A stretch of DNA of 64,000 nucleotides from an uncultured virus (IMG/VR IMGVR_UViG_3300043803_001357) (Duplodnaviria; Heunggongvirae; Uroviricota; Caudoviricetes), in the IMG/VR virus record IMGVR_UViG_3300043803_001357, positions 1-64,000 of that record, one strand, 5' to 3'. This document shows positions 8,102 through 54,381 of this stretch, in pieces (within the stretch, counting starts at the first letter, position 1; each line of letters opens with the position of its first letter). A program made the position numbers and the translations under genes. Below the pieces are notes generated by a model that did not search any database, was not told the origin of the DNA, and saw only the letters and a list, made by a program, of their open reading frames with translations.

Positions 8102-9061
8102 ATGCCTATTATCGACGATATCTATTTGGAAAAGTTTGGAAAATTAACAATTATTATTACGGATGAAGGTGTGTTTAAAACCATCAATGATTCATCGGTT
8201 AATTATGAGTTTATAATAACAATACGAAGTTTAGATTCCAATCTTATTTCACATATTATGTATCACCACTGTACAGTGGGGCATGATATGTGGACCTATA
8301 ATTATAACATTTTTTATATAAAAGAAATTTTAAATAAAAATCATCCTGGCATTTGCATAGAAATACACGATGTAGACAATACATTATTATTCAGTAAAAA
8401 TTATCACGGTACTAAAAAATTTAGATGTTTGGATTTAAAATCTAAACAAGGTGATACAACCTATCCATCTTACCATACATTTTTCTACGATGATTATTTT
8501 ACATCAAATTTTAATATCAAAGATGGAGATGTTGTTTATGATCTGGGAGCTAATATTGGTGCGTTTTCTATTGCGTGTTCTAATTTTGATATCAAACAAA
8601 TATATGCATTTGAACCACATCCAGAACTCTCACAGTATCTTAACGATAATTTGAACAGATATGGTAAAAACACAAAAGTGTTTAATAATGCGATTTCAAG
8701 TGAATTTAAAAAAGTAAGATTTGGTACCACAGAATCTACAGTTGCTTCCAGAATTAGAAACGAAGGTGAATTTGAAGTTGATGCTATTAATTTAGAAAAG
8801 TTTGTAATAGATAATAATTTGGAATTGCCAACTTATTTAAAAATTGATATAGAAGGAGCTGAATATGAGTTTTTTGAAAATACAAGTGACAATTTCTTCA
8901 AAAATGTTAGAAGTATATTCTTTGAATTTCATTGCAATGACGGCGTAAATCTACTTAAAATAATTGATAGATTTAAGAATTTAGGATACAAGTTAAGTCA
9001 CAAAGATAATGCCTTGGATCATAATCTATCACATATGAACACCGTATACTTAAATAAGTAA
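8102..9061 (+). CDS. FkbM-family SAM-dependent methyltransferase
   Basis: VYDLGANIGAFS, YAFEP, LKIDIEGAEY, FEFH. Confidence 0.88.
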   Translation: MPIIDDIYLEKFGKLTIIITDEGVFKTINDSSVNYEFIITIRSLDSNLISHIMYHHCTVGHDMWTYNYNIFYIKEILNKNHPGICIEIHDVDNTLLFSKNYHGTKKFRCLDLKSKQGDTTYPSYHTFFYDDYFTSNFNIKDGDVVYDLGANIGAFSIACSNFDIKQIYAFEPHPELSQYLNDNLNRYGKNTKVFNNAISSEFKKVRFGTTESTVASRIRNEGEFEVDAINLEKFVIDNNLELPTYLKIDIEGAEYEFFENTSDNFFKNVRSIFFEFHCNDGVNLLKIIDRFKNLGYKLSHKDNALDHNLSHMNTVYLNK

Positions 9062-32245: not shown

Positions 32246-33019
32246 TTATTCGAAAAATTCGTTGGTAGATGTTACAACGATTTCTTGTACTTCTTCTTTG
32301 AACGAAGTATCTTTGGGGTAAGGTAGAACTTTATGTTTAAGAGATTTAGTCAACTTTTTATTTTCTATTTTGTTACTGATAAACTTGATATAACGATGTT
32401 TACCACTTTCTCGTTTGCGCCAGAATGTTCTACCAATACGTTCTTTTAGTTTATCTACGCTGTGTGTTTTCCATCTTGAATATACACTTCTGCTGTGTAT
32501 CCAATCATAGTTAGGAGGACCAACTAAACTAACACTATAGTTAGGCATTATAGCGATATCTACATAGTTATCGCCTTGATATAGAAAGCCAGTTGCTTGA
32601 TAGATTGTGCCTGCGTGTCCAGCTTCACTATCCGCATAACTGAGAATACATTTGATGTGGGGATATTCAGTATTTAATAATCTAAAGCTTTCAGCTATAC
32701 AATAACTTTCTATATTTTTACCATAACCATCTGCAATCCACAGTCGTGTTAATTCTAACACATTGTTATTAGTAAGTAGTGAAGAGATACTGGTACTAGC
32801 ATTTCTACCCACGGCGTTTCCATATACTAATACACCTATTAATCGTTCGTTAAAACCACCAAAGAATGTACTCTCTACATATTCTTTATAGTATACTCCA
32901 TAAGCTACAGTACAAAGAGACCACTTGTGTGTATAATGATTCTTTTCAATAAGAGTTTTTGCAACATTCTTATTGATGCTTTTGATGTAAATTAATGTGG
33001 GGTCAAAATACTCCGACAT
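32246..33019 (-). CDS. Mom-like (GNAT-fold) DNA adenine modification protein
   Basis: IEKNHYTH, LIGVLVYG, LELTRLW, NIESY, ILSYADSEAGHAGTIYQATGFLY. Confidence 0.75.
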   Translation of the reverse strand: MSEYFDPTLIYIKSINKNVAKTLIEKNHYTHKWSLCTVAYGVYYKEYVESTFFGGFNERLIGVLVYGNAVGRNASTSISSLLTNNNVLELTRLWIADGYGKNIESYCIAESFRLLNTEYPHIKCILSYADSEAGHAGTIYQATGFLYQGDNYVDIAIMPNYSVSLVGPPNYDWIHSRSVYSRWKTHSVDKLKERIGRTFWRKRESGKHRYIKFISNKIENKKLTKSLKHKVLPYPKDTSFKEEVQEIVVTSTNEFFE

Positions 33020-33056: not shown

Positions 33057-33269
33057 TTATATTATATAAAAAAGACCTTTGGAATTATATACTACAGTTC
33101 TAATTTTGGTAGCATTAATCTTATTGATACCAAGTCTATCTATTACTTGAAATGGATCAGGGTGATTATTTATAGGAGCTGCCATAACTCTATCCTTTAT
33201 TTTGTATACATCCAAGTCTGTATTAACAATACTTGGATGATATTGTCTTACTAAAGGCATTGTTCTCAT
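33057..33269 (-). CDS. Hypothetical protein coupled to the cyclase gene
   Basis: ATGA overlap with the cyclase stop at 33266-33269. Confidence 0.55.
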   Translation of the reverse strand: MRTMPLVRQYHPSIVNTDLDVYKIKDRVMAAPINNHPDPFQVIDRLGINKINATKIRTVVYNSKGLFYII

Positions 33270-38768: not shown

Positions 38769-39998
38769 ATGAGTGCTAATTTAGATCAAGATAGGGTAAG
38801 ATGGCCTGGGAGTGGTAGTAGTGTTACTCAAAACACTGTGCCATTTGGTTATTACTTAAGCGAAAGTTGTAACACAGGATCTGGCGAAACTACTTTTGAA
38901 AATGATTGTAGTAGTAGTGCTATGTGGGCAGCAAAACGTTTGGGTTATCCTATTGTCGATATTGAAATGATCGATGTTAATTTTTATGCCTGTTTTGAAG
39001 AATCTGTATTGGAATATAACCGTGTAGTTAACGAATTCAACATCGTTAATAATATGGTAAATTTACAAGGATTACCACAAAACCAATACAAAAATTTAAC
39101 AGGTCTAGGAGTAAAAAGTACAGGATTGCCTTTTATAATTCAATTGAGCAAACAATATGGTGCAGAAGCACTTGTTGGTGGCGAATATGAAGTTAAACGC
39201 AATTATATTACTGTCAGTGGCAGTGTTAATCCAAGCAGCACACAACAAGTTTATGACTTAAATCAATTGATTGGTAAAGATATTGAACACTTGACAGGCT
39301 CTCGTATCGAAGTTAAACGTGTATTTCACCAAAGACCGCCAGCAATTGCTCGTATTTATGATCCGTTTAGTATGACTGGTATGAGTTATAGTAACGTACT
39401 AACAGAAATGGGATTTAGCGCATACAGTCCTGCTACACAATTCTTAATGACTCCGATCTTTGAAGACTTGGAACGTGTACAAGCTATTGAGTTTAATGAT
39501 ATGGTTCGTAAAAGCGCATATAGTTTTGAAATTCTAGGTAATAATAAGTTGAGAATATTTCCAATTCCAACCGACAATTTCAAAGTTTATATAGATTATA
39601 TAGTTGAAAGTGAACGTGATATTACCAACTTTTATAGTGGATCTCGTTATGAATACATTAGCGATCCAAGTGATATACCATACGAATACTGTACATATTG
39701 TAAGATAAATCAACCAGGCAAACAGTGGATCAAGAAATATTTCTTGGCTTTGTGCAAAGAAACATTGGGACGTATATTACAAAAATATAGTACAGTACCA
39801 ATTCCAGGTGGCGAAGTAACTCTTGACGGTGCGGAGTTACGTTCTGAAGCCAAGGAGGAAAAAGACACATTGCTTGATAAATTGAGAGATATGTTGGAAA
39901 AAACCTTGCGAGTCAATCAATTGGAAAATAAAGGTAAGGAAAGCGAAGAAATGAATAAGATGCTTTCCAGAGTACCACTACACATTTATATAGGATAA
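38769..39998 (+). CDS. Neck/head-completion protein (T4 gp13-like)
   Basis: RLGYPIVDIE, WIKKYFLALCKETLG..KYSTVPIPGGEVTLDG. Confidence 0.78.
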   Translation: MSANLDQDRVRWPGSGSSVTQNTVPFGYYLSESCNTGSGETTFENDCSSSAMWAAKRLGYPIVDIEMIDVNFYACFEESVLEYNRVVNEFNIVNNMVNLQGLPQNQYKNLTGLGVKSTGLPFIIQLSKQYGAEALVGGEYEVKRNYITVSGSVNPSSTQQVYDLNQLIGKDIEHLTGSRIEVKRVFHQRPPAIARIYDPFSMTGMSYSNVLTEMGFSAYSPATQFLMTPIFEDLERVQAIEFNDMVRKSAYSFEILGNNKLRIFPIPTDNFKVYIDYIVESERDITNFYSGSRYEYISDPSDIPYEYCTYCKINQPGKQWIKKYFLALCKETLGRILQKYSTVPIPGGEVTLDGAELRSEAKEEKDTLLDKLRDMLEKTLRVNQLENKGKESEEMNKMLSRVPLHIYIG

Positions 39999-40001
39999 TT
40001 T

Positions 40002-40571
40002 ATGGCAGCACCTGTATCACCACAATACCCTAAACAAAATCCAGCTTTTAAGCAATACTGGACATCTACACGTAAAGATGTGGGTATTTATAACAATAAT
40101 TATTCTCCCGGTAGATACTTTTCTCCAAGAGATATAAATTTTTTGGGAAGTGTTAATTCTGAATTAATCGGTGATATAATCGAATGCGTTGTACAAGTAT
40201 TTAAAATTGCAGCTTATGAAACCAATACCAATATCTACGGTGAAAGCAGTAGTGACAAGGGTAAGGTTTTTTACTCTGGTATAGACTTGAGTTGTTTGGT
40301 GCAACGTGAAGACATTAACACAGAAAATCAAGGATATGGACCTGATAGAAAACAAGATATTGTTTACAGATTTAGAGAACGTGATTGTATTACCACGAAC
40401 TATTTCCCAGAAATTGGCGATTTGGTGCTTTACAATGAACGTTATTATGAAATTGATAACGTAGTTCAAGAACAATTCTTGGGTGGTCATCCTGATAAGT
40501 CTTGGAGTTTGATTGTTAATACTCATTACACAAGACTAAGCAAAATTAACCTAGTAGAAAGACAAACATAA
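40002..40571 (+). CDS. Neck/head closure protein (T4 gp14-like)
   Basis: TNIYGES, PEIGDLV..YYEIDNV; position after the gp13-like gene. Confidence 0.65.
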   Translation: MAAPVSPQYPKQNPAFKQYWTSTRKDVGIYNNNYSPGRYFSPRDINFLGSVNSELIGDIIECVVQVFKIAAYETNTNIYGESSSDKGKVFYSGIDLSCLVQREDINTENQGYGPDRKQDIVYRFRERDCITTNYFPEIGDLVLYNERYYEIDNVVQEQFLGGHPDKSWSLIVNTHYTRLSKINLVERQT

Positions 40572-40574
40572 TTT

Positions 40575-41963
40575 ATGTCTTGGGGTCCAAATACTAATAC
40601 AAATCCGCCACCAAATCCTATTGAAAACGCATCTGCGCAATCAGATGTTAAAAAGTTCTATAATAGAGCCAACGCAACTCGTCGTGATACAGATAAACAA
40701 AAGAATTTTACTGTAACGTTATTGGACGTTGATACAGCTATTATCAACACATTAGATAGTACTTTAAGACTACAAGTAAACGATAATGGTGAAGTTGTCA
40801 AGGTGCCAATTATATATGGCAATCCAGAAAGATGGTTTGCTATGAAAAAGTTTGGTCATATCAGAGACAATCAAGGCAAAATATTGTTGCCAGCTGTTAT
40901 GATTCGTAGAAAAAGTGTAGAAAATAACAAAGATCTTGCAACATTTAATCGTTATTTGAGTTATGAAACCATAATGAATTATAGCGAGAAAAACAAATAT
41001 GACAGATTTGATTTGATGAACAAAGGTGCGTTTGCAAGCAAGCCAACCAAACAAATTTACAGTGTAAGTTTACCAGTTCAAGTAAATATTACATACGAAT
41101 GTATCATTTGGACTGATTATGTAGATCAAAACAATAAGCTGTTGGAACAAATCAATTATGCAGCTAAAGATTACTGGGGAGACGCAGAAAGATTTAAGTT
41201 CAGAGCCAGAATAGACAGTTATAGCATCGAACAAGAAATCAATGAAGGTGAAGATCGTAATATCAAAACATCATTTGATATAAATGTCAATGCATATTTG
41301 TTAAATGAAAATTACATAACAAATTTAGACGGGGTAAAAAATACCACTCAAAAGCTATTTACAGTAAGAAAAGTAATGTTGCAAGAAAATGCAATTGCTA
41401 GTGCAGGTGAAATGGAAAACATTTCAAACAATATTATTAAGAATAGCAACAATTTAAAAGATAGTCCATTGGATTACACAGATGTAACAGGTCAAGGTAC
41501 AATGGCACTAAACGTAAATAAAGTAACAAATTTAGACGGATATAATAAAATACAACCCAGTTTTGAAGGTGTTACCAAAACACCATTTCATCCAGCTCCA
41601 AAATCTATCACCGATTATGGAGAAAATGGTTGGTTAGCATATGATTCTAAATATATCTATGTTTATCAATATCCAGCGGGGTGGTTAAAAAGAGAAATTG
41701 CTACATTTGATTATGACTATAATAGTCAAACCTATATCAGTGGATACGATTGCAATGGCAATCCTATTTACACAACTGCAAATAAAAGACCAATAAATAC
41801 CGCTTTTAGAGTATTTCAAAGATTTCCTGACAAATTCTATCATCAAGTACCATATCAATCATCAGATTATGGTGAAGATGGTTGGGTAAGCTACGACGGT
41901 AATTATTTTTATATATACAGCGCAGGACAGTGGAGAAGAATACCAATTTCTCTATTTAATTAA
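40575..41963 (+). CDS. Tail terminator/sheath stabiliser (T4 gp15-like) with C-terminal extension
   Basis: VPIIYGNPERW, LPAVMIRR, PVQVNITY..IWT..NKLLEQI; duplicated DYGExGWxxYD module at the C-terminus. Confidence 0.7.
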   Translation: MSWGPNTNTNPPPNPIENASAQSDVKKFYNRANATRRDTDKQKNFTVTLLDVDTAIINTLDSTLRLQVNDNGEVVKVPIIYGNPERWFAMKKFGHIRDNQGKILLPAVMIRRKSVENNKDLATFNRYLSYETIMNYSEKNKYDRFDLMNKGAFASKPTKQIYSVSLPVQVNITYECIIWTDYVDQNNKLLEQINYAAKDYWGDAERFKFRARIDSYSIEQEINEGEDRNIKTSFDINVNAYLLNENYITNLDGVKNTTQKLFTVRKVMLQENAIASAGEMENISNNIIKNSNNLKDSPLDYTDVTGQGTMALNVNKVTNLDGYNKIQPSFEGVTKTPFHPAPKSITDYGENGWLAYDSKYIYVYQYPAGWLKREIATFDYDYNSQTYISGYDCNGNPIYTTANKRPINTAFRVFQRFPDKFYHQVPYQSSDYGEDGWVSYDGNYFYIYSAGQWRRIPISLFN

Positions 41964-42032: not shown

Positions 42033-45000
42033 ATGTCAACATTAAAGAAAGATCCATGCGAGGTTTCTCCAATAAAATTGGATAATGCTCTGTATGATTA
42101 TAAAAAATTAACAGCGACTTTTAAAGATCCTACCACAGAGCTGTTTCTTAAAATAATCGACGAATTACGTAAAATTATTTATTGTCGAACCAGTTCTCAG
42201 TTTTTCAACAATGTTGCTACTAAACAAATACCATGCGATCAAAAATCAAAAACTTGGGTATTTGATCATAATTTAAACTCAGATCTAGTATTAATTCAAA
42301 CATACGACGAGAATTTCAATCAATTAATACCAGAAACAATAGTACTCAATAATGATAATACCGCAACCATAACTTTTTCGTTTGATGCATGCGGATACAT
42401 CATAGGTGTAAGCGGTAATATCAGCACCAGTGGTACTTCAGGCACAGGCACCAGTGGTAGTAGTGGTAGTAGCGGAGAAAAAGGATCAGCTGGATCAAGC
42501 GGAACAAGCAATACAAGCGGCACAAGCGGTACAAGCACATCTTCAGGTACCAGTGGTAGTCAAGGCACAAGCGGTACAAATGGTGAGGGTGGTAGTAGCG
42601 GTCAAAGTGGCGATATAGGAACCAGTGGAACTAGTGGAGAAAATGGAAGCAGTGGTACAAGCGGTAGTAGTGGTTTATTAGATGGATCAAGCGGATCAAG
42701 TGGTACAAGTACTACAAGCGGTACAACCGGCACAAGTGGCACAAGAGGATCAAGCGGTAGATCAGGCACCAGTGGAAGCAGCGGAACAAGTGGTAGTAGC
42801 GGAACAAGTGGTACTAGTGGTACAAGTGGTACCAGTGGTACAAGTGGCACAAACGGTACTAGTGGTAGCAGTGGCACCAGTGGTACAAGCGGATCTAGTG
42901 GCACAAGTGGTACAAATGGATCAAGTGGTACAAGTGGTAGCAGCGGATCAAGTGGTACAAGTGGATCAAGTGGTACAAGTGGTACAAGCGGATCTAGTGG
43001 CACCAGTGGTACTAGTGGTACGAGTGGTACCAGTGGGTCAAGTGGATCGAGCGGATCTAGTGGCACAAGTGGCACATCTGGTATAAGTGGAAGCAGTGGT
43101 TCAAACGGCACAAGCGGCACAAATGGCACCAGTGGCACAAGTGGTACTAGTGGAACAAGTGGTACAAGTGGTACAAGCGGTACAAGTGGATCATCTGGTA
43201 ATAGTGGATCATCCGGTAGTAATGGGACAAATGGCACCAGTGGTACAAGCGGCACAAGTGGTACAAGCGGTACTAGTGGTACAAGCGGAACAAGTGGTAC
43301 AAGTGGTACAAGCGGTACAAGCGGTACTAGTGGATCAAGTGGATCAAGTGGGTCAAGTGGATCAAATGGTACAAACGGCACTAATGGTACAAATGGCACT
43401 AGTGGTACAAGCGGCACTAGCGGTACAAGTGGTACCAGTGGTACAAGTGGATCAAGTGGGTCAAGTGGGTCAAGTGGGTCAAGTGGATCAAGTGGATCTA
43501 ATGGAACAAATGGTACCAGTGGTACAAATGGTACCAGTGGTACTAGCGGAACAAGTGGTACAAGCGGTACTAGCGGATCAAGTGGTTCAAGTGGTTCAAG
43601 TGGGTTAAGTGGTTCAAGTGGTTCATCTGGTACTAGCGGATCGTCTGGCAGTAGCGGAACAAGTGGATCTAATGGCACAAACGGCACAAGTGGTACTAGC
43701 GGCACAAGTGGTACTAGCGGCACAAGTGGTACTAGCGGCACAAGTGGATCAAGTGGATCAAGTGGTACTAGTGGATCAAATGGTACAAGCGGATCTAACG
43801 GCACAAATGGCACAAGTGGATCAAATGGTACAAGTGGAACGAGTGGTACAAGCGGTACAAGTGGTAGTAGTGGAACAAGTGGTACAAGTGGTAGTAGTGG
43901 AACAAGTGGATCAAATGGCACAAGTGGTACTAGCGGATCAAACGGCACAAGTGGATCTAATGGCACAAGTGGTACTAGTGGTACAAGCGGTACTAGTGGT
44001 ACAAGCGGTACTAGTGGATCGAGTGGATCAAGTGGATCAAGTGGATTAAGCGGTTCAAGTGGATCATCTGGTACTAGCGGATCAAGTGGATCATCTGGTA
44101 CCAGCGGATCCAATGGAACGAATGGAACAAGTGGATCGTCCGGTACTAGCGGATCAAGTGGATCGTCTGGTACTAGCGGATCAAGTGGATCATCCGGTAC
44201 AAGTGGATCTAATGGAACAAGTGGTACTAGCGGATCTAACGGTACCAGTGGTAGCAGTGGCACAAGTGGTACAAGCGGATCAAGTGGTACTAGCGGTACA
44301 AGTGGATCAAGTGGATCAAGTGGTTCAAGTGGTTCAAGCGGATCAAGTGGCAGTAGTGGTACTAGTGGATCAAACGGTACTAGTGGTACAAGCGGTACAA
44401 ACGGTACTAGTGGTTCAAGTGGTTCAAGTGGATTAAGTGGATCAAGTGGATCATCTGGTACAAGCGGATCAAGCGGTAGTAGTGGATCATCTGGTACAAG
44501 CGGATCTAATGGTACAAGCGGTAGTAGTGGATCAAATGGTACCAGTGGCACAAGTGGCACAAGTGGTACAAGTGGATCTAATGGTACAAGCGGTAGTAGT
44601 GGCACAAGCGGTAGTAGTGGATCATCTGGAACAAGTGGATCTAATGGCACAAGCGGTACAAGTGGTAGCAGTGGATCTTCTGGTATAAGTGGTAGTAGTG
44701 GAACGAGTGGCACAAGCGGTAGTAGTGGAACAAGTGGTAGTAGTGGATCAAATGGCACAAGCGGATCAAATGGTACTAATGGTACTAACGGTACTAACGG
44801 TACAAGTGGTACATCTGGTAGTAGTGGAACAAGTGGTACTAGTGGAACAAGTGGATCATCTGGAACAAGCGGATCTAATGGTACAAGTGGAACAAGTGGG
44901 TCAAACGGTACAAGCGGTAGTAGTGGAACAAGCGGTACTAGTGGTACTAGTGGCACAAGTGGTACTAGTGGCACAAGTGGTACTAGTGGATCATCTGGTA

Positions 45001-48000
45001 TAAGTGGAACAAGCGGATCAAACGGCACAAGTGGTACAAGCGGATCAAACGGCACAAGTGGTACAAGCGGTACTAGTGGCACAAGTGGTACAAGCGGTAC
45101 TAGTGGCACAAGCGGTACAAGTGGTAGTAGTGGATCAAGTGGTACTAGTGGATCAAATGGCACAAGCGGCACAAGCGGCACTAGTGGTACTAGTGGTACG
45201 AGCGGATCTAATGGCACAAGCGGTACTAGTGGAACAAGTGGATCTAATGGCACAAGTGGTACAAGCGGCACAAGTGGTACAAGTGGGTCAAGTGGATCAA
45301 ATGGTACAAGTGGGTCAAGTGGATCAAGCGGTACAAGTGGGTCAAATGGATCAAGCGGTACAAGTGGATCTAATGGCACAAGTGGCACAAGTGGTAGTAG
45401 TGGATCTTCTGGTATAAGTGGCAGCAGTGGTACAAATGGAACAAGCGGCACCAGTGGCGTAAGTGAATCAAGTGGATCAAGTGGAAGCAGTGGTACTAGT
45501 GGCACAAGTGGATCCAACGGTACAAGTGGCAGTAGTGGTACAAGTGGTACAAGTGGTAGTAGTGGTACAAGTGGATCAAATGGAAGCAGTGGCACAAGTG
45601 GAAGCAGTGGTACTAGTGGCACAAGTGGATCTAACGGTACAAGTGGTACTAGTGGTACTAGTGGTACTAGTGGTACAAGCGGTACTAGTGGTAGTAGCGG
45701 ATCGTCTGGTATAAGTGGGTCAAGTGGATCAAGTGGCACAAGTGGTACAAGCGGATCGAACGGCACCAGTGGGTCAAGTGGATCAAGTGGATCAAGTGGC
45801 ACAAGCGGATCAAGTGGATCAAGTGGTACAAGCGGATCTAACGGTACAAGCGGATCTAACGGTACAAGTGGCACAAGTGGATCCAACGGTACAAGTGGTA
45901 GTAGCGGATCGTCTGGTATAAGTGGTAGCAGTGGAACAAACGGCACCAGTGGTACAAGTGGCACAAGTGGTATAAGCGGATCAAACGGTACAAGTGGTAG
46001 TAGCGGATCGTCTGGTACTAGCGGATCAAGTGGATCTAACGGTACAAGTGGTACAAATGGTACTAGTGGCACAAGCGGTACAAGTGGATCTAATGGTACC
46101 AGTGGTAGCAGTGGCACAAGTGGTACAAGCGGATCAAGTGGTACTAGTGGCACAAGCGGAACAAGTGGAACAAGCGGCAGTAATGGATCAAGTGGCACAA
46201 GTGGTATAAGTGGGTCAAATGGTACTAGTGGCACAAGCGGTACTAGTGGTAGTAGCGGATCGTCTGGTGTAAGTGGATCAAGTGGATCAAGTGGGTCAAG
46301 TGGGTCAAGTGGATCAAGTGGGTCAAGTGGATCAAGTGGTACAAGTGGATCAAGTGGGTCAAATGGTACTAGTGGCACAAGCGGAACAAGTGGATCAAGT
46401 GGGAGCAGTGGTACCAGTGGCACTAGTGGTACGAGTGGATCAAATGGTACCAGTGGAACGAGTGGAACAAGTGGTATAAGTGGGTCAAATGGTACAAATG
46501 GTACTAGTGGCACAAGTGGAACAAGTGGATCAAGTGGTAGCAGTGGTACTAATGGTACTAGTGGTACAAGTGGTATAAGCGGATCAAATGGCACCAGTGG
46601 AACAAGCGGAACAAGTGGTACCAGTGGTACTAGTGGTAGCAGTGGTACAAGCGGATTTAGTCGTGATAGTGGTAGCAGTGGTAATAGTGCCACAAGTGGT
46701 AGTAGTGGTACAAGTGGTAGTAGCGGTACAAGTGGAACAAGTGGTAGCAGTGGTCAAAACGGAACAAGCGGAACAAATGGAACGAGTGGCACTAGCGGAA
46801 CAAGTGGAACTAGTGGTAGCAGTGGTAGCAGTGGTATTAGTGGTAGCAGTGGTAGAAATGGAACCAGTGGTACAAGTGGCACAAGCGGAACAAGCGGAAC
46901 AAGTGGTACTAGTGGTAGCAGTGGTACAAGCGGATTTAGTCGTGATAGTGGTAGCAGCGGTAATAGTGCCACAAGTGGTAGTAGTGGTACAAGTGGTAGT
47001 AGCGGTACAAGTGGAACAAGTGGTAGCAGCGGTCAAAACGGAACAAGCGGTACTAGTGGCACAAGCGGAACCAGTGGTAGTAGTGGTAGTAGTGGTAGCA
47101 GTGGTACAAGTGGTACAAGTGGTACGAGTGGTCGAAATGGAACCAGTGGTACAAGTGGTACAAGCGGAACCAGTGGTACAAGTGGAAGTAGTGGTACAAG
47201 CGGATTTAGTCGTGATAGTGGTAGCAGCGGTAATAGTGCCACAAGTGGTAGTAGTGGTACAAGTGGTAGTAGTGGAACGAGCGGCACAAGTGGTAGTAGC
47301 GGTCAAAACGGAACAAGTGGAACAAACGGAACAAGTGGCACAAGTGGAACGAGCGGAACAAGTGGTAGCAGTGGCACAAGTGGTCGAAATGGAACCAGTG
47401 GAACAAGTGGTAGCAGTGGTACGAGTGGCACAAGCGGAACGAGTGGTAGTAGTGGTACTGTTGGTACAAGTGGAACAAGTGGTGTAAGTGCTGGTGGAGG
47501 TGCTAGTGCTAGTAGTGGAAGTAGTGGTATAAGTGGAACTAGTGGTAGCAGTGGTACGAGTGGCACTAGTGGTATTAGTGCTCCTAGTGGTACCAGTGGA
47601 ATTAGTGGTGGTAGTTTTACTGATCAGCCTAATTATTTGGTAAAAACTACTGGTCTTACTACGTTACAGAGTGTTAATTTTTTAAGTGTGGATGGTACTA
47701 CATTAACAGTTGTTGGAACTGTTAGTGCTACTACATTGATAGAAACGTCTAGTGAAAATACTAAAACGGATATTATGCCTTTATTGCCGCCGCAATTGGA
47801 CAAGATTGTGTTATTGAATCCGGTGACATTTAGGTATAAGAACAACAATGAATTTAGTATTGGTTTGATAGCTGAAGAGGTTGTGAAGATATATCCTGAA
47901 TTTGTTAGTTATGATGAGTTGGGTAATATATCTGGTATAAATTATAGTAAATTGACAGCTGTATTGATACAGGGTGTTAAAGAATTGAAGCAGATAGTTG

Positions 48001-48041
48001 ATGAACAACAAATAACAATAAATCGATTGATAAATAAATAA
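42033..48041 (+). CDS. Giant Gly-X-Y (G-T/S-S/N) repeat fibre protein with C-terminal intramolecular chaperone (peptidase S74-like)
   Basis: N-terminal TWVFDHNLN..YDENFNQLIP domain; ~1,730 aa of Gly-X-Y; C-terminal SSENTK..LNPVTFRYK..IGLIAEEV..INYSKLTAVLIQGVKEL. Confidence 0.85.
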   Translation: MSTLKKDPCEVSPIKLDNALYDYKKLTATFKDPTTELFLKIIDELRKIIYCRTSSQFFNNVATKQIPCDQKSKTWVFDHNLNSDLVLIQTYDENFNQLIPETIVLNNDNTATITFSFDACGYIIGVSGNISTSGTSGTGTSGSSGSSGEKGSAGSSGTSNTSGTSGTSTSSGTSGSQGTSGTNGEGGSSGQSGDIGTSGTSGENGSSGTSGSSGLLDGSSGSSGTSTTSGTTGTSGTRGSSGRSGTSGSSGTSGSSGTSGTSGTSGTSGTSGTNGTSGSSGTSGTSGSSGTSGTNGSSGTSGSSGSSGTSGSSGTSGTSGSSGTSGTSGTSGTSGSSGSSGSSGTSGTSGISGSSGSNGTSGTNGTSGTSGTSGTSGTSGTSGTSGSSGNSGSSGSNGTNGTSGTSGTSGTSGTSGTSGTSGTSGTSGTSGTSGSSGSSGSSGSNGTNGTNGTNGTSGTSGTSGTSGTSGTSGSSGSSGSSGSSGSSGSNGTNGTSGTNGTSGTSGTSGTSGTSGSSGSSGSSGLSGSSGSSGTSGSSGSSGTSGSNGTNGTSGTSGTSGTSGTSGTSGTSGSSGSSGTSGSNGTSGSNGTNGTSGSNGTSGTSGTSGTSGSSGTSGTSGSSGTSGSNGTSGTSGSNGTSGSNGTSGTSGTSGTSGTSGTSGSSGSSGSSGLSGSSGSSGTSGSSGSSGTSGSNGTNGTSGSSGTSGSSGSSGTSGSSGSSGTSGSNGTSGTSGSNGTSGSSGTSGTSGSSGTSGTSGSSGSSGSSGSSGSSGSSGTSGSNGTSGTSGTNGTSGSSGSSGLSGSSGSSGTSGSSGSSGSSGTSGSNGTSGSSGSNGTSGTSGTSGTSGSNGTSGSSGTSGSSGSSGTSGSNGTSGTSGSSGSSGISGSSGTSGTSGSSGTSGSSGSNGTSGSNGTNGTNGTNGTSGTSGSSGTSGTSGTSGSSGTSGSNGTSGTSGSNGTSGSSGTSGTSGTSGTSGTSGTSGTSGSSGISGTSGSNGTSGTSGSNGTSGTSGTSGTSGTSGTSGTSGTSGSSGSSGTSGSNGTSGTSGTSGTSGTSGSNGTSGTSGTSGSNGTSGTSGTSGTSGSSGSNGTSGSSGSSGTSGSNGSSGTSGSNGTSGTSGSSGSSGISGSSGTNGTSGTSGVSESSGSSGSSGTSGTSGSNGTSGSSGTSGTSGSSGTSGSNGSSGTSGSSGTSGTSGSNGTSGTSGTSGTSGTSGTSGSSGSSGISGSSGSSGTSGTSGSNGTSGSSGSSGSSGTSGSSGSSGTSGSNGTSGSNGTSGTSGSNGTSGSSGSSGISGSSGTNGTSGTSGTSGISGSNGTSGSSGSSGTSGSSGSNGTSGTNGTSGTSGTSGSNGTSGSSGTSGTSGSSGTSGTSGTSGTSGSNGSSGTSGISGSNGTSGTSGTSGSSGSSGVSGSSGSSGSSGSSGSSGSSGSSGTSGSSGSNGTSGTSGTSGSSGSSGTSGTSGTSGSNGTSGTSGTSGISGSNGTNGTSGTSGTSGSSGSSGTNGTSGTSGISGSNGTSGTSGTSGTSGTSGSSGTSGFSRDSGSSGNSATSGSSGTSGSSGTSGTSGSSGQNGTSGTNGTSGTSGTSGTSGSSGSSGISGSSGRNGTSGTSGTSGTSGTSGTSGSSGTSGFSRDSGSSGNSATSGSSGTSGSSGTSGTSGSSGQNGTSGTSGTSGTSGSSGSSGSSGTSGTSGTSGRNGTSGTSGTSGTSGTSGSSGTSGFSRDSGSSGNSATSGSSGTSGSSGTSGTSGSSGQNGTSGTNGTSGTSGTSGTSGSSGTSGRNGTSGTSGSSGTSGTSGTSGSSGTVGTSGTSGVSAGGGASASSGSSGISGTSGSSGTSGTSGISAPSGTSGISGGSFTDQPNYLVKTTGLTTLQSVNFLSVDGTTLTVVGTVSATTLIETSSENTKTDIMPLLPPQLDKIVLLNPVTFRYKNNNEFSIGLIAEEVVKIYPEFVSYDELGNISGINYSKLTAVLIQGVKELKQIVDEQQITINRLINK
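42423..47615 (+). repeat. Degenerate 9-bp tandem coding repeat (GGN-ACN/TCN/AGY-AGY/AAY)
   Basis: About 5.2 kb of ggtacaagt/ggatcaagt/ggtactagt-type units. Confidence 0.97.
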
Positions 48042-48050
48042 TTATATTAT

Positions 48051-51000
48051 ATGGCAATATTACAAGGTGCTCGAATTACAGGATCAATTATAGCTACAAC
48101 TTTTATTAAAGCTAGTGGTTTCAGTGGCAGTTTAACTGCTTCTAGATTGTATGTACAAGGATCGGTTGGTATAGGCACAACAAGTCCTGTTTATAAATTG
48201 GATGTAGTTGGTTCTGTGTATAGTTCTAATTATTTTTCAGTATTAACCGCAGCAACATATGGTCCAAGTGATAATAGTGCGGCAATGCAAGTGTTTGGAT
48301 CAACTGGTTCAGGTGGATTAACAAATACTATAAAGTTTGTTACAGTTGGTAGTGAAAGAGTTCGTATTGACAACAATGGTAATGTTGGTATAGGTACAAC
48401 AAGTCCTACGGGAACTTATGGAAAGTTAAGTGTAGCAGGCGGTATTCGTATATTAGATGATAATAATGCAAAATTAGAAATTGGTAGATATTCAAGTGGT
48501 GCATCCAATTCTTATATTAAACTGGGTTCAAATTCTAATAGTTTAAGAATTACTAATAATACTGATGCGGCTGATATCTTTACTATAGAAAATGGTGGTA
48601 ATGTTGGTATAGGTACAACAAGTCCTAATTATTTAACGGATATACAATCAACAACAAGTCCACAAACTTTAAATTTAAAATTAAATAAAACATCTACAAC
48701 AAATGACTACGCAGAAATTGCATTTCAATTATGGAGTGGCGCCGGTTCAGGAGCAAATACATTTGGCGGATCAGGAACTTCTAGACCAAGCGTGGTTTTA
48801 AGAGCATTAAATGAAAATGGAGGTACCGCTGCAGGTGCTTTTATAGTGGGAACATTTACAGGCGGATCAGATAATTCAACACTGACAGAAAAATTTAGAA
48901 TTACATCAGTCGGTAACGTAGGTATAGGTACAACAAGTCCAAGTCAATTATTAGAAGTAGCTGGGTCTAGCCCAATAATTAGAGTATTGGCCACATCAGG
49001 TAATTCTACATTAAGATTAACTGATAATGGTGTAAGAAATTGGGATCTAAAAGTTGTAGATACTTCAGATTATTTTGAAGTAGGTGGTACATCCGCAACT
49101 TCATTGGTTGTAACAGGAGCAGGTAATGTTGGTATAGGTACAACAAGTCCTGTATTTTCATTGGATGTGACAGGTGGTGTTGGATTAAATACATCTGGAA
49201 CTGGAGTATCCGTAACAATTGGTGCAAATAATACATCTGATAGATATTTACGCATTAGAAATTCAAATGGTAATTTTGAAATTGGAAGTGCTGGAAATCA
49301 ACATTATTTATATGGTGTTGGTGCTAGTAATTTCTTTACTATCTACACAAATTCATCCGAACGATTCAGAATTGCAGCCGATGGTAATGTTGGTATAGGT
49401 ACAACAAGTCCATCACAAAAATTAACTATAAATAATGGTTCTTCAACAGGAGCCGGTGCAGTATATCCAATTAGATTATCTGGAGGAACAATGACTAGTG
49501 TTGGTGACTCTACTGGTTTATTGTTTATACAAAGAGATGCAAATGATGATTACGGTGCTTATATAAGACTATATACTACTCAAGCCAATCCTCAATATTT
49601 AAATCCAAGACTTGAATTTGGTGTACAAACTACAGATACAAATGTACTTGGTAGTGTTGTTACTAGAATGGTAATAACAGGAGATGGCGATGTGGGTATT
49701 GGTACAACATCACCAACTGCACAATCAAACTATAGATTTTTACAAGTTAACGGCACCAATTCGGCGGTTATTGAAACGATGGTTGGTGGTTCAAGAATTG
49801 GTGGATTTGATTCAAGTGCATCAGCTTTGTATGTAGGTTCAATTGGTAGTTATCCTGTTGTATTCAGAACGGCAGTTGATGAAAAAATGCGTATAGCTAC
49901 AGATGGTAATGTGGGTATAGGCACAAGTACTCCTGCTTATAAATTGGATGTGGTTGGTTCTATAAATACAAGCAACTTCATGTTTGTTTCATATCCATAT
50001 GGCAACGCATTTCCATTACAATTAACCGCCAATAACTTTCTAAAAGCTGATAACTATTATTATGGAATGTCAATTAATACAGGAGATGTAAATTATATTT
50101 CTGGTAAGTTCCTAATTAATGGTGGTACATATAAGAGAGTAGAACTATATGGATACGAAAATAGTGTTGGATATATACCAACCATAATTCCAGGTGGATG
50201 TGTTGGTATTGGTACGATAATTACAAATTCAGGTTTACAAATACAAACAGAAGGAACAAATACTACGTCTGGTTCATTCTTGTTTGTAAGATCTACAAAT
50301 TCAAGTTTTGGTGGTGGGGCAATTGGTGTTGGATATGATTATGCAGCTGCAGTTGGAGCTAATTTCTATCCATTTAGAATTAGAGCTGGTAGTACCAACA
50401 CTATATTATTGATAAATAGTGCGGGTGTAGTTTATGCGGGTGATACTACAGGAGCAGTTGCTTATGGTAATCATGACCCATATTATGCTTTTAATCAAGA
50501 TACCAATACTGGTATGGATTGGGCAGCCGCTGATACACTAACATTTAAAACAGGTGGTAGTGAAAGAATGCGTATTGCTTCTAATGGCAGTGTTGGCATA
50601 GGTACAACAAGTCCTAATTATACACTTCAAGTTAACGGAACTTTTTACGTAAACAGCACAACATATATGAATGGATCTTTGACAGTTGAAGATTCATTCA
50701 TAATAGATGGTAGGTTGGCAGGTAGTTTTGGTACGGGTTCTATACTAATGAAGAGTGGAAATTCTTCTGGTACTTGGAATCAATTTAATATATTTTACTA
50801 TAAAAACTCAAGTATCGATAGACTCGGTTTTGTTGATGGTGGTTCTGTAGAAATATTAACTCTAAAAAATGGTGGTAATGTTGGTATAGGCACAACGAGT
50901 CCTGTTAATAAATTGCATATAAGTGGATCTTCTACAAATTTACCACTTAAATTGGAAGGATTGACAAGTAACGCAACTGGATATTTTCTAACAGTTGATA

Positions 51001-51539
51001 ATACAACCGGCGTTGTATACAAATCTACCGGTGGTGCTAATGGAACAAGTGGCACCAGTGGCGCAAATGGCAGTCCAGGTGGTGCGGGTAGCAGTGGTAC
51101 CAATGGAACGAGTGGCACCAGTGGCGCAAATGGTAATCCAGGTACCAGTGGCACTAGTGGCGCAAATGGTAATGCTGGGTCTAGTGGTATTACTGGTACC
51201 AGTGGTACTAGCGGTGTCACAAATATAAAAGCATGGATTCACTTTAATGGAACAGGCACACCATCATCTAACGCGTCTAATAACGTATCATCCATAACTG
51301 ATAATGGTACCGGCGATTATACAATTAACTTTACCACTGCATTTTCTAATGCAAATTATGTGGTAGCTGGTACAGCAACTTATCAATATGAAAATCCCGG
51401 TCAATCTATAAATAATATGTTTATTGCAGTACCAAGAAGACCTACAGCACAATTAGCTGGTAGTTGTAGAATTTCTACGCCTGGTTCTGATAACGTATTA
51501 TACGATTGCGATTATGTTAGAGTATTATTTTCAAATTAA
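48051..51539 (+). CDS. Modular tail fibre protein with GNVGIGTTSP repeats
   Basis: About 11 GxVGIGT motifs separating variable modules; short Gly-X-Y run; C-terminal KAWIHFNG..VSSITDNGTGDYTINF domain. Confidence 0.82.
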   Translation: MAILQGARITGSIIATTFIKASGFSGSLTASRLYVQGSVGIGTTSPVYKLDVVGSVYSSNYFSVLTAATYGPSDNSAAMQVFGSTGSGGLTNTIKFVTVGSERVRIDNNGNVGIGTTSPTGTYGKLSVAGGIRILDDNNAKLEIGRYSSGASNSYIKLGSNSNSLRITNNTDAADIFTIENGGNVGIGTTSPNYLTDIQSTTSPQTLNLKLNKTSTTNDYAEIAFQLWSGAGSGANTFGGSGTSRPSVVLRALNENGGTAAGAFIVGTFTGGSDNSTLTEKFRITSVGNVGIGTTSPSQLLEVAGSSPIIRVLATSGNSTLRLTDNGVRNWDLKVVDTSDYFEVGGTSATSLVVTGAGNVGIGTTSPVFSLDVTGGVGLNTSGTGVSVTIGANNTSDRYLRIRNSNGNFEIGSAGNQHYLYGVGASNFFTIYTNSSERFRIAADGNVGIGTTSPSQKLTINNGSSTGAGAVYPIRLSGGTMTSVGDSTGLLFIQRDANDDYGAYIRLYTTQANPQYLNPRLEFGVQTTDTNVLGSVVTRMVITGDGDVGIGTTSPTAQSNYRFLQVNGTNSAVIETMVGGSRIGGFDSSASALYVGSIGSYPVVFRTAVDEKMRIATDGNVGIGTSTPAYKLDVVGSINTSNFMFVSYPYGNAFPLQLTANNFLKADNYYYGMSINTGDVNYISGKFLINGGTYKRVELYGYENSVGYIPTIIPGGCVGIGTIITNSGLQIQTEGTNTTSGSFLFVRSTNSSFGGGAIGVGYDYAAAVGANFYPFRIRAGSTNTILLINSAGVVYAGDTTGAVAYGNHDPYYAFNQDTNTGMDWAAADTLTFKTGGSERMRIASNGSVGIGTTSPNYTLQVNGTFYVNSTTYMNGSLTVEDSFIIDGRLAGSFGTGSILMKSGNSSGTWNQFNIFYYKNSSIDRLGFVDGGSVEILTLKNGGNVGIGTTSPVNKLHISGSSTNLPLKLEGLTSNATGYFLTVDNTTGVVYKSTGGANGTSGTSGANGSPGGAGSSGTNGTSGTSGANGNPGTSGTSGANGNAGSSGITGTSGTSGVTNIKAWIHFNGTGTPSSNASNNVSSITDNGTGDYTINFTTAFSNANYVVAGTATYQYENPGQSINNMFIAVPRRPTAQLAGSCRISTPGSDNVLYDCDYVRVLFSN
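48378..49411 (+). repeat. Dispersed 29-bp exact direct repeat GGTAATGTTGGTATAGGTACAACAAGTCC
   Basis: Exact copies start at 48378, 48597, 49122, 49383; degenerate copies elsewhere in the gene. Confidence 0.9.
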
Positions 51540-51694: not shown

Positions 51695-52858
51695 ATGATT
51701 ACTAATAAACATAAAATATATTTGGATATGGATGGTGTGATAAGTGATTGGGAATTGCAATTCAAGCGATATAGTGGTGGTGTACCTGTTGAAACTTATG
51801 ATGCTGAACACGGTAAAAAGAATAGATTTAAGTTTGTAGATAAGAATTGTCCTGAATACTATTCTAGTATGCCTTGGATGAAAGATGGCAGATTGCTTTA
51901 TAATTTTGTATCAAATTTGCCTGTAGAGATATTGAGTCATGCGCCTACCAATTTGGCATATGTTGGTAAAAAGCAGTGGTTAGCCAATAACAATATTGAT
52001 ATTAAAGCTAATTTGGTACCGCATAGAAATTTAAAAGCAAAGTTTGCAACTCCTGATAGTATTTTGATAGATGACCGTGAAGATAATGTAAATGATTTTA
52101 TCAAAGCTGGTGGTAAAGCAATATTGCATAAAAGCGCAATAGATACAATTAATAAACTAAAAGAAATGTTGGGTATCAAAGAATCTCATAGAATTTATAA
52201 TAGCATTTTAAATCCTGAGATATGGGCTACTGAAAATGCTATTAAACCTGATGTATTAAACAAGTTATTAACTATTGCAAATACTTTTTACAAAGATACT
52301 GATTTGAATGTACCTCTTGAAAATATATACTTTCTTGGTAGTACTGCCGGATATAATTGGACACCAACAAGTGATATTGACTTACATTTGGTTGTAGATT
52401 TTTCCAAAATTGATCCAAATGAAGAACTGGTTAAGAATTATGTGGATGGCTTAAAAAGCAAATGGAATGAAAACCACAACATTAGAATTGGCAATCATCC
52501 AGTGGAAGTTTACATTCAAGATATTAAAGAGGTCAATAGAAGTCAAGCTGTATATAGTTTGATGAAAAATGAATGGGTAAAAAAGCCAAAAATAGAAGAC
52601 ATTCAGATTGATAAAGATGCTATTACAAAGAAATACAAACAATATGTTTCGTTTATTTCCACAGCTATAAAAGAACAAAATTTAGATAAATTAAAGCGTT
52701 TAGTTAAACGTTTGTATGAAATGAGAGAAGCTGGATTAAGTAAGAGCGGCGAGTATAGTACAGAAAATTTGGTGTTTAAACTTTTAAGATCCACAGGTTA
52801 CGTCAATCAACTAAAAAATGCTATCACAAATATTACAGATAAAAATTTGAGTAAATGA
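51695..52858 (+). CDS. HAD 5'(3')-nucleotidase-like domain fused to Pol-beta-superfamily nucleotidyltransferase
   Basis: IYLDMDGV..ILS..K..ILIDD (HAD motifs); LGSTAGYNWTPTSDIDLHL..VEVYIQD (GS..DxD..E/D). Confidence 0.75.
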   Translation: MITNKHKIYLDMDGVISDWELQFKRYSGGVPVETYDAEHGKKNRFKFVDKNCPEYYSSMPWMKDGRLLYNFVSNLPVEILSHAPTNLAYVGKKQWLANNNIDIKANLVPHRNLKAKFATPDSILIDDREDNVNDFIKAGGKAILHKSAIDTINKLKEMLGIKESHRIYNSILNPEIWATENAIKPDVLNKLLTIANTFYKDTDLNVPLENIYFLGSTAGYNWTPTSDIDLHLVVDFSKIDPNEELVKNYVDGLKSKWNENHNIRIGNHPVEVYIQDIKEVNRSQAVYSLMKNEWVKKPKIEDIQIDKDAITKKYKQYVSFISTAIKEQNLDKLKRLVKRLYEMREAGLSKSGEYSTENLVFKLLRSTGYVNQLKNAITNITDKNLSK

Positions 52859-53427: not shown

Positions 53428-53460
53428 AAAAGAACCCCACATTTATTTGTGGGGTTTTCT
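53428..53460 (+). terminator. Rho-independent terminator after tail tube gene
   Basis: AACCCCACA-TTTATT-TGTGGGGTT followed by TTCT. Confidence 0.8.
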
Positions 53461-53472
53461 ATTTATTACTAT

Positions 53473-54381
53473 ATGCAAATGGGCAAGAAAATATTCGTAA
53501 TTTATCCTGGTAGATTTCATCCCTTTCACAAAGGTCACAAAAGTGTATACAACTACCTAACCACTAAATTTGGTGGTAATGATGTATACATAACAACCAC
53601 AGGTGTTACAAAATTGCCAAAATCACCATTTACTTTCAATGAAAAAATGCAAATGATGATTACCACAGGTATACCGGCAAACAAAATACTAAACGTCAAA
53701 AACAACTACAACTTGAAAAGTGTAGCTAATCAAATACCAATCAATATAGAACGTGATATTATTATTTTTGCAGTTAGTGAAAAGGATATGATTGAAGATC
53801 CAAGATTCAAAAACTTTGTAAAAAAAGATGGATCTCCTTCTTATTTACAGCCATTGCCAAAAAATCAATCCAAATTAGACCCAGCCATAAAACACGGATA
53901 CTTGATAACAGTACCAACTGTAGATTTTACAGTACTAGGGTTACCGGCTAGAAGTGCAAGTCAATTAAGATCTCAATATGCTACATTAACCCCAGAACAA
54001 CAAAAGGCTTTTATTATCGATTTGTTTGGTAATTACAATACAAATGTTCATAATATATTAAACAATAAATTGGGTAAAATTACTGGTAAATTAACCGAAA
54101 AACAAAAGAAGTTATTAAAGAAATTGATTGTGGGTATAATGAAAGAAGACGAAGCTAAAATAAATTCTGCAAGAAAAAAGTATAATCAAGCTGGATTGGT
54201 TCTTCGTACCGTTGAACTTGATGCGGCACAACAAGAACTTACAAAAGCAAATGACGATTTAAAAGCTGCAACTACCCCCGAAGAAAAAGCTGCGGCTGAA
54301 CTACGTGTAAAAAACAAAAAAGATGCAGTAGACAGTAAAACAGCCGCTCGTGATGCTGCTCAACATCAATTAAATACCTAA
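53473..54381 (+). CDS. HIGH-motif (cytidylyl/adenylyl-transferase-like) protein with helical C-terminal tail
   Basis: IYPGRFHPFHKGH, SPFTFNEK, SASQLR; start reassigned to 53473 (or 53479). Confidence 0.7.
   Translation: MQMGKKIFVIYPGRFHPFHKGHKSVYNYLTTKFGGNDVYITTTGVTKLPKSPFTFNEKMQMMITTGIPANKILNVKNNYNLKSVANQIPINIERDIIIFAVSEKDMIEDPRFKNFVKKDGSPSYLQPLPKNQSKLDPAIKHGYLITVPTVDFTVLGLPARSASQLRSQYATLTPEQQKAFIIDLFGNYNTNVHNILNNKLGKITGKLTEKQKKLLKKLIVGIMKEDEAKINSARKKYNQAGLVLRTVELDAAQQELTKANDDLKAATTPEEKAAAELRVKNKKDAVDSKTAARDAAQHQLNT

Follow-up and report, generated by a model that had tools for sequence, protein, structure and literature searches.

We analysed a window of 64,000 nucleotides (nt) of viral DNA, positions 1 to 64,000 of IMG/VR record IMGVR_UViG_3300043803_001357, and focused on a gene that encodes a giant fibre protein built around a long collagen-like array of Gly-X-Y triplets. 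In this protein, an N-terminal part precedes the collagen-like domain, which is followed by a short tip and a C-terminal chaperone domain of the S74 type (Table 1). The gene sits in a fibre cassette, with neck and gp15-like genes before it and a gene for a second fibre of 1,162 amino acids (aa) after it. The same window encodes a cluster of sugar-modifying enzymes, one of which contains a domain of the TibC/Aah family of protein O-heptosyltransferases. An initial annotation, made from the letters alone, had described the gene as a proline-free collagen-like fibre capped by a trimerization chaperone; our analysis confirmed this observation and supported part of the interpretation placed on it.

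Table 1. Features of the window that bear on the collagen-like fibre
Feature	Position in window	Strand	Description
Fibre gene	42033..48041	+	2,002 aa plus stop; from the open reading frame (ORF) list and translation
N-terminal part, aa 1-138	42033..42446	+	two predicted helices, aa 13-29 and 35-52 (candidate virion anchor); immunoglobulin (Ig)-like beta-sandwich, aa 58-128
Collagen-like domain, aa 139-1849	42447..47579	+	546 strict Gly-X-Y triplets; Pfam Collagen
Three tandem units of 93, 90 and 93 aa (aa 1541-1816)	46653..47480	+	each begins GFSRDSGSSGNSATS, where two triplets lack Gly
Short non-collagen tip, aa 1850-1905 (~56 aa)	47580..47747	+	beta-like sequence; aligns with the stretch upstream of the 8jov cleavage site
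Peptidase_S74 intramolecular chaperone, aa 1906-2002 (97 residues)	47748..48041	+	Pfam PF13884
Neck and tail-terminator genes	38769..41963	+	adaptor-like, 409 aa; 189-aa ORF; T4 gp15-like, 462 aa; directly upstream of the fibre gene
Second fibre gene, 1,162 aa	48051..51539	+	GNVGIGTTSP-type repeats; 21 Gly-X-Y triplets of the same flavour; C-terminal globular domain of ~100 aa
FkbM-family methyltransferase	8102..9061	+	Pfam Methyltransf_21; NCBIfam TIGR01444, 82.8 bits against a cut-off of 37.7; adjoins the glycosyltransferases
GT4-type glycosyltransferase, 670 aa	9065..11077	+	Pfam Glyco_trans_1_4 and Glycos_transf_1, both above cut-off
Glycosyltransferase fusion, 714 aa	11074..13218	+	N-terminal GT4 (group 1) domain; C-terminal TibC/Aah-type protein O-heptosyltransferase domain, aa 337-708

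The collagen-like domain spans 1,711 aa, or 570 triplet slots, and the first estimate of about 575 triplets over about 1,730 aa was therefore slightly high but essentially right. Its strict triplets fall into eight uninterrupted runs of 7, 15, 305, 132, 27, 26, 27 and 7, and six of the seven interruptions are Gly-to-X replacements that keep the triplet register. After composition-preserving shuffling (n = 200), the longest in-register Gly run was at most 12, compared with 305 in the protein. The X position is mostly Thr (310) or Ser (200), with 13 Ile, and the Y position is mostly Ser (459) or Asn (78), making GTS (283), GSS (151), GSN (47) and GTN (24) the commonest triplets. These counts, and the absence of any Pro between aa 101 and 1850, confirmed the composition noted in the initial annotation. 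Charged residues number only 18 in the domain (one Lys, eight Arg, five Asp and four Glu), and a search for Tyr, Trp, KGE and KGD found none of them there. The Pfam Collagen family (PF01391) matched with an E value of 4.2e-217, and the uninterrupted Gly-X-Y repeats that mark this family are present; the usual collagen stabilizers, Pro or hydroxyproline (Hyp) at X or Y and KGE/KGD, which are typical of the family but not strictly defining, are not. PHROG tail-fibre families also matched the protein. The repeat also gives rise, as a by-product, to a long open frame on the other strand (42602-46693).

A three-residue period with small side chains, in a phage from lake water, could also suit a different ordered fold, such as a polyglycine-II bundle of the snow-flea antifreeze type or a silk-like beta structure, and the initial annotation had raised such a bundle along with ice or gel binding. 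In a polyglycine-II bundle, tight polyproline II packing requires that most triplets carry Gly at more than one position. In the array, Gly occupies none of the 546 X positions and one of the 546 Y positions (1 of 1,092 combined), which departs from the snow-flea type and makes this fold very improbable. The strong Collagen match and the C-terminal trimerizing chaperone suit a three-chain coaxial fibre instead, and nothing in the analysis supports binding to ice or gel.

We also considered whether the length of the array could be an assembly artefact, caused by an expanded or misjoined repeat, or whether the gene might be unexpressed or decaying. The array DNA is degenerate, with repeat copies about 70-75% identical; its longest exact internal repeat is 83 nt, within the tandem units, and no 101-mer recurs. 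Contigs assembled at k = 31 from four of four lake-water runs (different years, 2020-2025) tile all 30 bins of the fibre locus, with exact-match pieces inside the array of up to 706 nt and at depths near the flank depth. Because no single k = 31 contig spans the array, these contigs show its repeat content and not its order. The fibre ORF is intact and in frame in all five other assemblies of the phage that were checked (1,909-2,002 aa). Two other assemblies have the same 2,003-codon open frame as the window, and the one that was fetched (L069) is identical to it; the allele in L067 is identical save for the clean loss of one 93-aa unit; and two of the five assemblies represent a diverged strain with a 1,912-aa fibre. 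The 93-aa unit that differs between otherwise identical assemblies may reflect either polymorphism or mis-assembly, and two near-identical library proteins, P0002 and P0003, end inside the repeat. About 5% of the fibre length, corresponding to one tandem unit, is uncertain or polymorphic, whereas the expansion that the initial annotation had named as a possible refutation does not hold for the bulk of the array.

Comparing the window with the diverged strain over 1,909 aligned codons, we found 118 synonymous and 36 non-synonymous differences. At Gly codons, 49 changes were synonymous and none was non-synonymous, and all insertions and deletions between the strains were multiples of three residues. 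These comparisons indicate that the Gly-X-Y register is under purifying selection. The intact ORF in other assemblies, the excess of synonymous changes and the lack of non-synonymous Gly changes together argue that the gene is real, translated and constrained in its register. Its codon usage is also similar to that of the rest of the phage. An artefactual or decaying array therefore seems extremely unlikely. Single contigs of runs X1 and X10 run out of the array at 45411 and into it at 46520; each carries about 255 nt of AT-rich sequence unrelated to the array, which at 46520 looks like a ribosome site followed by a start codon. Such contig ends probably stem from further collagen-repeat genes, in this phage or in related ones, that have words in common with the array.

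The C terminus of the fibre carries a second family signature. Pfam PF13884 matched aa 1906-1958 (37.7 bits against a cut-off of 22), phrog_1658 and phrog_33119 cover the C terminus, and the solved tail-fibre chain 8jov in PDB matched it with an E value of 2.5e-4. In the alignment with 8jov, Ser1906 and Lys1911 of the motif SSENTK (aa 1906-1911) correspond to the Ser and Lys of SDERLK, placing a Ser/Lys pair five residues apart at the start of the S74 domain. Following the endosialidase literature, we take residues of this type to be catalytic. The Pfam match and the alignment bear out the S74-type chaperone and the Ser/Lys pair that had been read from the letters. S74 chaperones are devices that fold trimeric fibres, and self-cleavage before Ser1906 is likely to follow trimerization. 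The tip would then remain on the mature fibre, in a chain of about 1,905 aa. Because only about 56 aa separate the last triplet from the predicted cleavage site, there is no large tip domain, in agreement with the earlier remark that no receptor-binding tip is obvious.

The main rival to an ordered fibre is a disordered, heavily O-glycosylated tether of the mucin type, trimeric only at its ends, that would serve as an entropic brush, a spacer or a glycan display. The lack of Pro, charge pairs and aromatic residues gives the array a composition typical of disordered linkers, and a protein O-glycosyltransferase cluster is present in the window. However, a linker does not need Gly at strictly every third residue, and neither the runs of 305 and 132 triplets nor the invariance of the Gly codons and the register-keeping interruptions would be expected of one. 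Strict register is also seen in relatives with other end domains, in up to 1,149 uninterrupted triplets, and the chaperone at the C terminus is of a kind that folds trimeric fibres. We consider a disordered tether unlikely on balance.

The N-terminal part of the fibre is a candidate for attachment to the virion. In an AlphaFold2 model it had a mean pLDDT (predicted local distance difference test) of 68.8, with values of 83-94 over the sandwich. Copies of the sandwich module, 2-11 per protein, are found inside hundreds of other long proteins, and the module is internal in 14 of the 120 listed collagen-bearing relatives; because it is so widespread, the specific virion anchor is probably the first ~55 residues. 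The whole N-terminal part was matched only by library proteins P0002, P0003, P0059, P0072 and P0146. P0059 is a complete 221-aa protein in which the same N terminus is joined to about six triplets and a different C-terminal domain. Searching the 138 aa against the sequences of solved structures gave no convincing match (best E value, 0.45), and a Foldseek search with the model gave none at E <= 0.001. A wide structural search returned generic helical hairpins and Ig-like sandwiches only (Z <= 6.3), and protein atlas scores did not exceed 0.85 and are leads only. A match to the T5-like neck chain 8hqo_P (E value, 0.063; root-mean-square deviation, 17.8) was not meaningful. No full-length relative with the same N terminus was found among proteins of 1,101-3,504 aa, and tblastn against the 75.6-kb contig that contains the window revealed no paralogue of the N-terminal or of the C-terminal part.

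The glycosyltransferase fusion is a clear member of the TibC/Aah family. It matched the NCBIfam equivalog TIGR04414 over aa 337-707 with 344.4 bits (cut-off, 200; E value, 7e-103) and TibC itself (PDB 4rap) over 366 residues with E values of 2.2e-76 to 8.6e-76. Pfam matches were to Glycos_transf_1 and Glyco_transf_9. All four Cys residues of the C-terminal C..C...C...C cluster, which we take to be an iron-binding motif, are aligned between the two enzymes. With about 690 Ser and 320 Thr, the collagen-like domain makes the fibre by far the largest Ser target in the window, and the fusion is a candidate modifier of it. The initial annotation had supposed that a Pro-free array may need glycosylation of its Thr and Ser residues for stability. 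This guess gains support from the fusion and from the two further sugar-modifying genes beside it, whose putative target is the fibre.

Similar enzymes accompany collagen repeats in other viruses. We found 63 viral loci that encode relatives of the TibC-like domain. Among 21 other TibC-positive viral records (at least 50 kb, less than 70% identity), 16 contain Collagen-model matches. Giant open frames in TibC-positive records are 2,514-3,852 aa long, with 554-1,149 triplets (up to 1,149 of them uninterrupted) and 0-3 Pro, and the genes for enzyme and fibre are 2.1-2.6 kb apart in three of the five giant-fibre records and about 24 kb apart in the other two. Among relatives chosen by their capsid protein (n = 16, at least 40 kb), collagen repeats occur in both TibC-positive records and in 2 of the 14 TibC-negative ones.

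We think it somewhat more probable than an even chance that the product of this gene is a virion fibre that forms an S74-nucleated, self-cleaved and O-glycosylated triple helix of the collagen type and acts as a host-capture line. The S74 chaperone would set three chains in register and seed folding at the C terminus through the short beta tip. Folding of collagen propagates from the C to the N terminus (PMC11923368), and a collagen-type triple helix of about 570 triplets, or about 0.49 micrometres, could grow in this way towards the N terminus. The chaperone would cut itself off before Ser1906, while the N-terminal helices and the Ig-like module would hold the thread on the particle. Collagen rises by 0.286 nm per residue, which gives about 490 nm for 1,711 residues if they are triple-helical. 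The predicted thread would be about three times as long as the tail, which we take to be about 170-190 nm from the 1,135-aa tape-measure candidate; the initial figures of about 500 nm and several tail lengths are close to these. At this length the thread would be best suited to long-range capture or tethering, and it may work as a long, semi-flexible line that enlarges the radius of first contact with a host in dilute water.

A helix that has neither Pro nor Lys-Glu/Asp clamps would most likely be stabilized by O-glycosylation. We propose that Ser and Thr residues of the thread are modified by the TibC/Aah-type fusion, the second GT4 enzyme and the FkbM methyltransferase, and that this provides stability, solubility and protection. 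Consistent with this idea, (Gly-Pro-Thr)10 is reported to form a triple helix only when its Thr is galactosylated, and bacterial and viral collagen-like proteins are enriched in Thr-rich triplets (PMC11923368). A more specific version is a 'glyco-collagen', that is, a triple helix of about 0.5 micrometres, free of Pro, Hyp and salt bridges, that folds only through heptose-based Ser glycans made by the TibC-type enzyme together with the GT4 enzyme and the methyltransferase; this version is tentative.

Several observations weigh against the glycosylated triple helix as we propose it. The domain lacks both of the stabilizers described in PMC11923368, Pro/Hyp and KGE/KGD. Sequence, Foldseek and wide structural searches gave the N-terminal part no match that is informative about an attachment site. 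On the host-guest propensity scale, Thr at X and Ser or Asn at Y are among the poorer residues. The gene for the TibC-like enzyme is 28.8 kb from the fibre gene in the window, and TibC and Aah are known to act on beta-helical repeats of autotransporters, not on collagen. The second fibre (1,162 aa) has strand-loop-strand-like repeats and resembles such substrates more closely than a collagen would, and it could equally well be the target of the enzyme. No ADP-heptose pathway gene scored above cut-off in ten phage records, five of this phage and five other TibC-positive ones (three of these at least 93% complete): gmhA was found in none of the ten and rfaE domain II in none, with one sub-threshold match to the latter in record G021 (114.6 bits against 181.5). 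Five of the 21 TibC-positive records have no collagen match, and two of the 14 TibC-negative capsid relatives carry collagen repeats. Because the records are fragmentary and phylogenetically related, the counts are not independent and the co-occurrence is suggestive only. Record G021 (253,137 bp, 94% complete) has a TibC-like gene and no Collagen-model match, which makes it a useful exception for establishing what a phage TibC-like enzyme modifies.

It is possible that the glycosyltransferase cluster is unrelated to the fibre and modifies the beta-repeat fibre, the sheath or capsid, DNA or the host surface, the thread being stable without modification in cold water by virtue of its length and its C-terminal clamp. 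The distance between the genes in the window, the beta-helical substrates of the family, the nearly complete TibC-positive record that has no collagen and the two TibC-negative relatives that have it all favour such an arrangement. By contrast, the frequency of collagen in TibC-positive records (16 of 21, against 2 of 14 TibC-negative relatives), the close spacing of the two genes in three of the five giant-fibre records and the sheer number of Ser residues in the fibre point to a connection, and we regard an unrelated cluster as a doubtful, though serious, explanation.

If the glycosylated triple helix is correct, it has consequences for collagen as well as for phages. Collagen stability has been attributed to Pro/Hyp and lately to Lys-Glu/Asp salt bridges, the latter being described as shared by all life and by viruses (PMC11923368). 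Both are missing from this fibre and from its larger relatives, although purifying selection keeps their Gly register perfect across strains and phage lineages. If such fibres fold, they would embody a new stabilization chemistry, likely based on Ser/Thr O-glycosylation, that could be produced recombinantly and would represent a third, so far unstudied, way of stabilizing collagen. It would also be the first protein-glycosylating use in a virus of the autotransporter heptosyltransferase family, which is otherwise known from bacterial adhesins only, and the second clear case of virion glycosylation after that of the mycobacteriophages mentioned in PMC12619734. Our literature search, which left subscription journals mostly uncovered, found no paper describing phage TibC-like enzymes. 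Aquatic jumbo phages would gain a sugar-coated fishing line for their hosts, and threads of 0.5-1 micrometre would alter estimates of the encounter radius for abundant freshwater jumbo phages. Of the 24 listed runs, 19, which are lake-water metagenomes from 2020-2025, contain at least 0.90 of the words sampled from the fibre locus; because the phage recurs in at least 19 such runs, material for testing these ideas exists.

The window lies in a viral contig of 75,570 bp without terminal repeats, with a G+C content of about 32% that rises to 46-49% only over 42-48 kb. Family searches identified the gene set of a T4-like myophage in the window, including a gp23-type major capsid protein, portal, prohead protease and large terminase. 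Tail genes comprise a 1,304-aa sheath, a gp19-type tube, a baseplate hub, and neck and gp15-like genes, and a PHROG search provided the tape-measure candidate. The nearest isolates by capsid protein are Microcystis phage Mel-JY01, Flavobacterium phage immuto and an uncultured 484-kb phage (49-50% identity). CheckV estimated larger contigs of the same phage (83-134 kb) to be 31-48% complete, which implies a genome of about 280 kb; the source is an uncultured freshwater T4-like jumbo phage. Evidence for the neck genes came from phrog_211 and Pfam T4-gp15_tss (26.7 bits against a cut-off of 25), and the neck region is syntenic with that of immuto and Mel-JY01. Neither of these two relatives has a giant collagen gene after gp15; other fibre-like genes are found there.

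Further fibre-related genes occur in this phage. In the diverged strain (record G001, contig C1, near 104527), the counterpart of window positions 48051-51539 is a 1,782-aa open frame with Collagen matches, and elsewhere the same phage encodes a collagen-repeat ORF of 618 or 624 aa and a second S74-capped protein of 503 aa. In the sheath protein (13298-17212, + strand), sheath families matched only the last ~350 aa; the other ~950 aa, in extra domains that are N-terminal or inserted, would decorate the surface of the tail. Two non-structural genes are placed between the fibre genes and those for the tail tube and baseplate hub: one encodes a 5'-3' deoxyribonucleotidase-like protein with a nucleotidyltransferase-like C-terminal half (51695-52858, +), and the other a protein of 310 aa that carries a cytidylyl/adenylyltransferase domain at its N terminus and has its best, though weak, matches to nicotinamide mononucleotide adenylyltransferase (53449-54381, +). 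A GIY-YIG/HNH-type homing endonuclease is encoded directly after the major capsid gene (31247-31990, +), followed on the opposite strand by a Mom-like DNA modification protein (32246-33019, -). A 591-aa protein (33266-35041, -) has several ankyrin repeats (Ank_2; E value, 2.6e-38) and, at its C terminus, a catalytic domain of the adenylate/guanylate cyclase type (23.2 bits; cut-off, 21.9), a combination that is unusual for a phage and might manipulate host nucleotide signalling. An 858-aa protein with FG-GAP repeats (532-3108, +; E value, 5e-22) lies beside replication genes. A single 1,063-aa ORF (4909-8100, +) combines an SbcD-like N-terminal and an SbcC-like C-terminal nuclease part, which are usually two genes, such as those for gp47 and gp46 in T4.

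The fibre has many relatives. A search for words shared with its C-terminal quarter among proteins of 1,101-3,504 aa gave 245 significant matches, and most of the 120 listed have 0-2 Pro in their triplets and a Thr/Ser-Ser/Asn/Asp flavour, with many ending in S74. With 546 triplets, this fibre has the most among those 120, the next having 261; the view that it is the longest of its class held there and was overturned by the arrays in TibC-positive records. Given these larger TibC-linked relatives and the many proline-free metagenomic ones, the proline-free Gly-Thr/Ser-Ser design appears to be recurrent in aquatic jumbo phages, with this fibre a mid-sized and unusually well supported member, and the uniqueness implied by the initial annotation was mistaken. 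A search of a phage collection with the whole fibre gave one weak C-terminal match only, to Synechococcus phage S-8S53, since a low-complexity filter hides the repeat in that search.

Phage collagen-like fibres, often capped by S74, are a known kind, of which the proline-free and nearly charge-free giant array is a variant. Collagen-like phage fibre proteins were reportedly the subject of 'Bacteriophage collagen' by Smith et al. (1998). Published examples include P-SSM2 orf028, 49% of which is Gly-X-Y (PMC1079782), and EPclA of E. coli O157:H7 prophages (PMC3368898). Similar to the present gene, these phage and prophage tail-fibre genes encode Gly-X-Y stretches that are presumed to form trimeric stalks, and X and Y are often Ser or Thr in aquatic phages. 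As far as PMC11923368 describes them, however, phage collagens have tens to low hundreds of triplets and contain Pro and/or many charged residues (about 22% in EPclA), compared with 546 triplets, no Pro and 18 charged residues in 1,711 aa here. In a literature search that left subscription journals mostly uncovered, we found no description of proline-free, charge-free giant phage collagen arrays.

Other S74-capped fibres, such as the K1F endosialidase and the T5 L-shaped fibre, differ in their stalks. The C-terminal domain with a Ser-x4-Lys pair at the cleavage site is shared with 8jov, but known S74 fibres have a triple beta-helix or beta-prism stalk and a receptor-binding or enzymatic part, whereas this one has a nearly pure collagen-type array and about 56 aa besides. 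T4 fibritin (wac) shares a place beside the neck genes, and the collagen-like fibre may have a whisker-like role, but fibritin has an N-terminal neck-binding part and, in place of the Gly-X-Y shaft and S74 cap, a coiled-coil shaft and a C-terminal foldon, and no fibritin family was among the Pfam and PHROG matches of the fibre. The closest counterparts are the giant fibres of TibC-carrying aquatic phages (records G022, G023, G024, G014 and G025), which have proline-free Gly-(Ser/Thr)-Ser arrays of 554-1,149 triplets and a TibC-like gene 2-24 kb away in the same record. Their N- and C-terminal domains are different, one ending in S74 and most in a globular domain; the present fibre is shorter, carries more Thr at X and more Asn at Y, and includes three tandem units of 90-93 aa.

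With regard to sugar-dependent stability, BclA of the Bacillus anthracis exosporium and the cuticle collagen of Riftia are similar in having Thr-rich Gly-X-Y repeats that lack hydroxyproline and rely on O-linked sugars for stability or function (PMC11923368), but they place Thr at Y beside Pro (GPT), whereas here Thr is at X, Ser is at Y and Pro is absent. The candidate transferase also differs, being of the heptosyltransferase (GT9-like) family. The members of this family that act on the AIDA-I and TibA adhesins, Aah and TibC (TIGR04414; PDB 4rap and 4rb4), modify many Ser residues of a long, repetitive surface protein, and their substrates are beta-helical passenger domains in Enterobacteria. 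The enzyme domain described here clearly belongs with them, but it is phage-encoded and fused to GT4, and the collagen-like fibre is a candidate substrate only.

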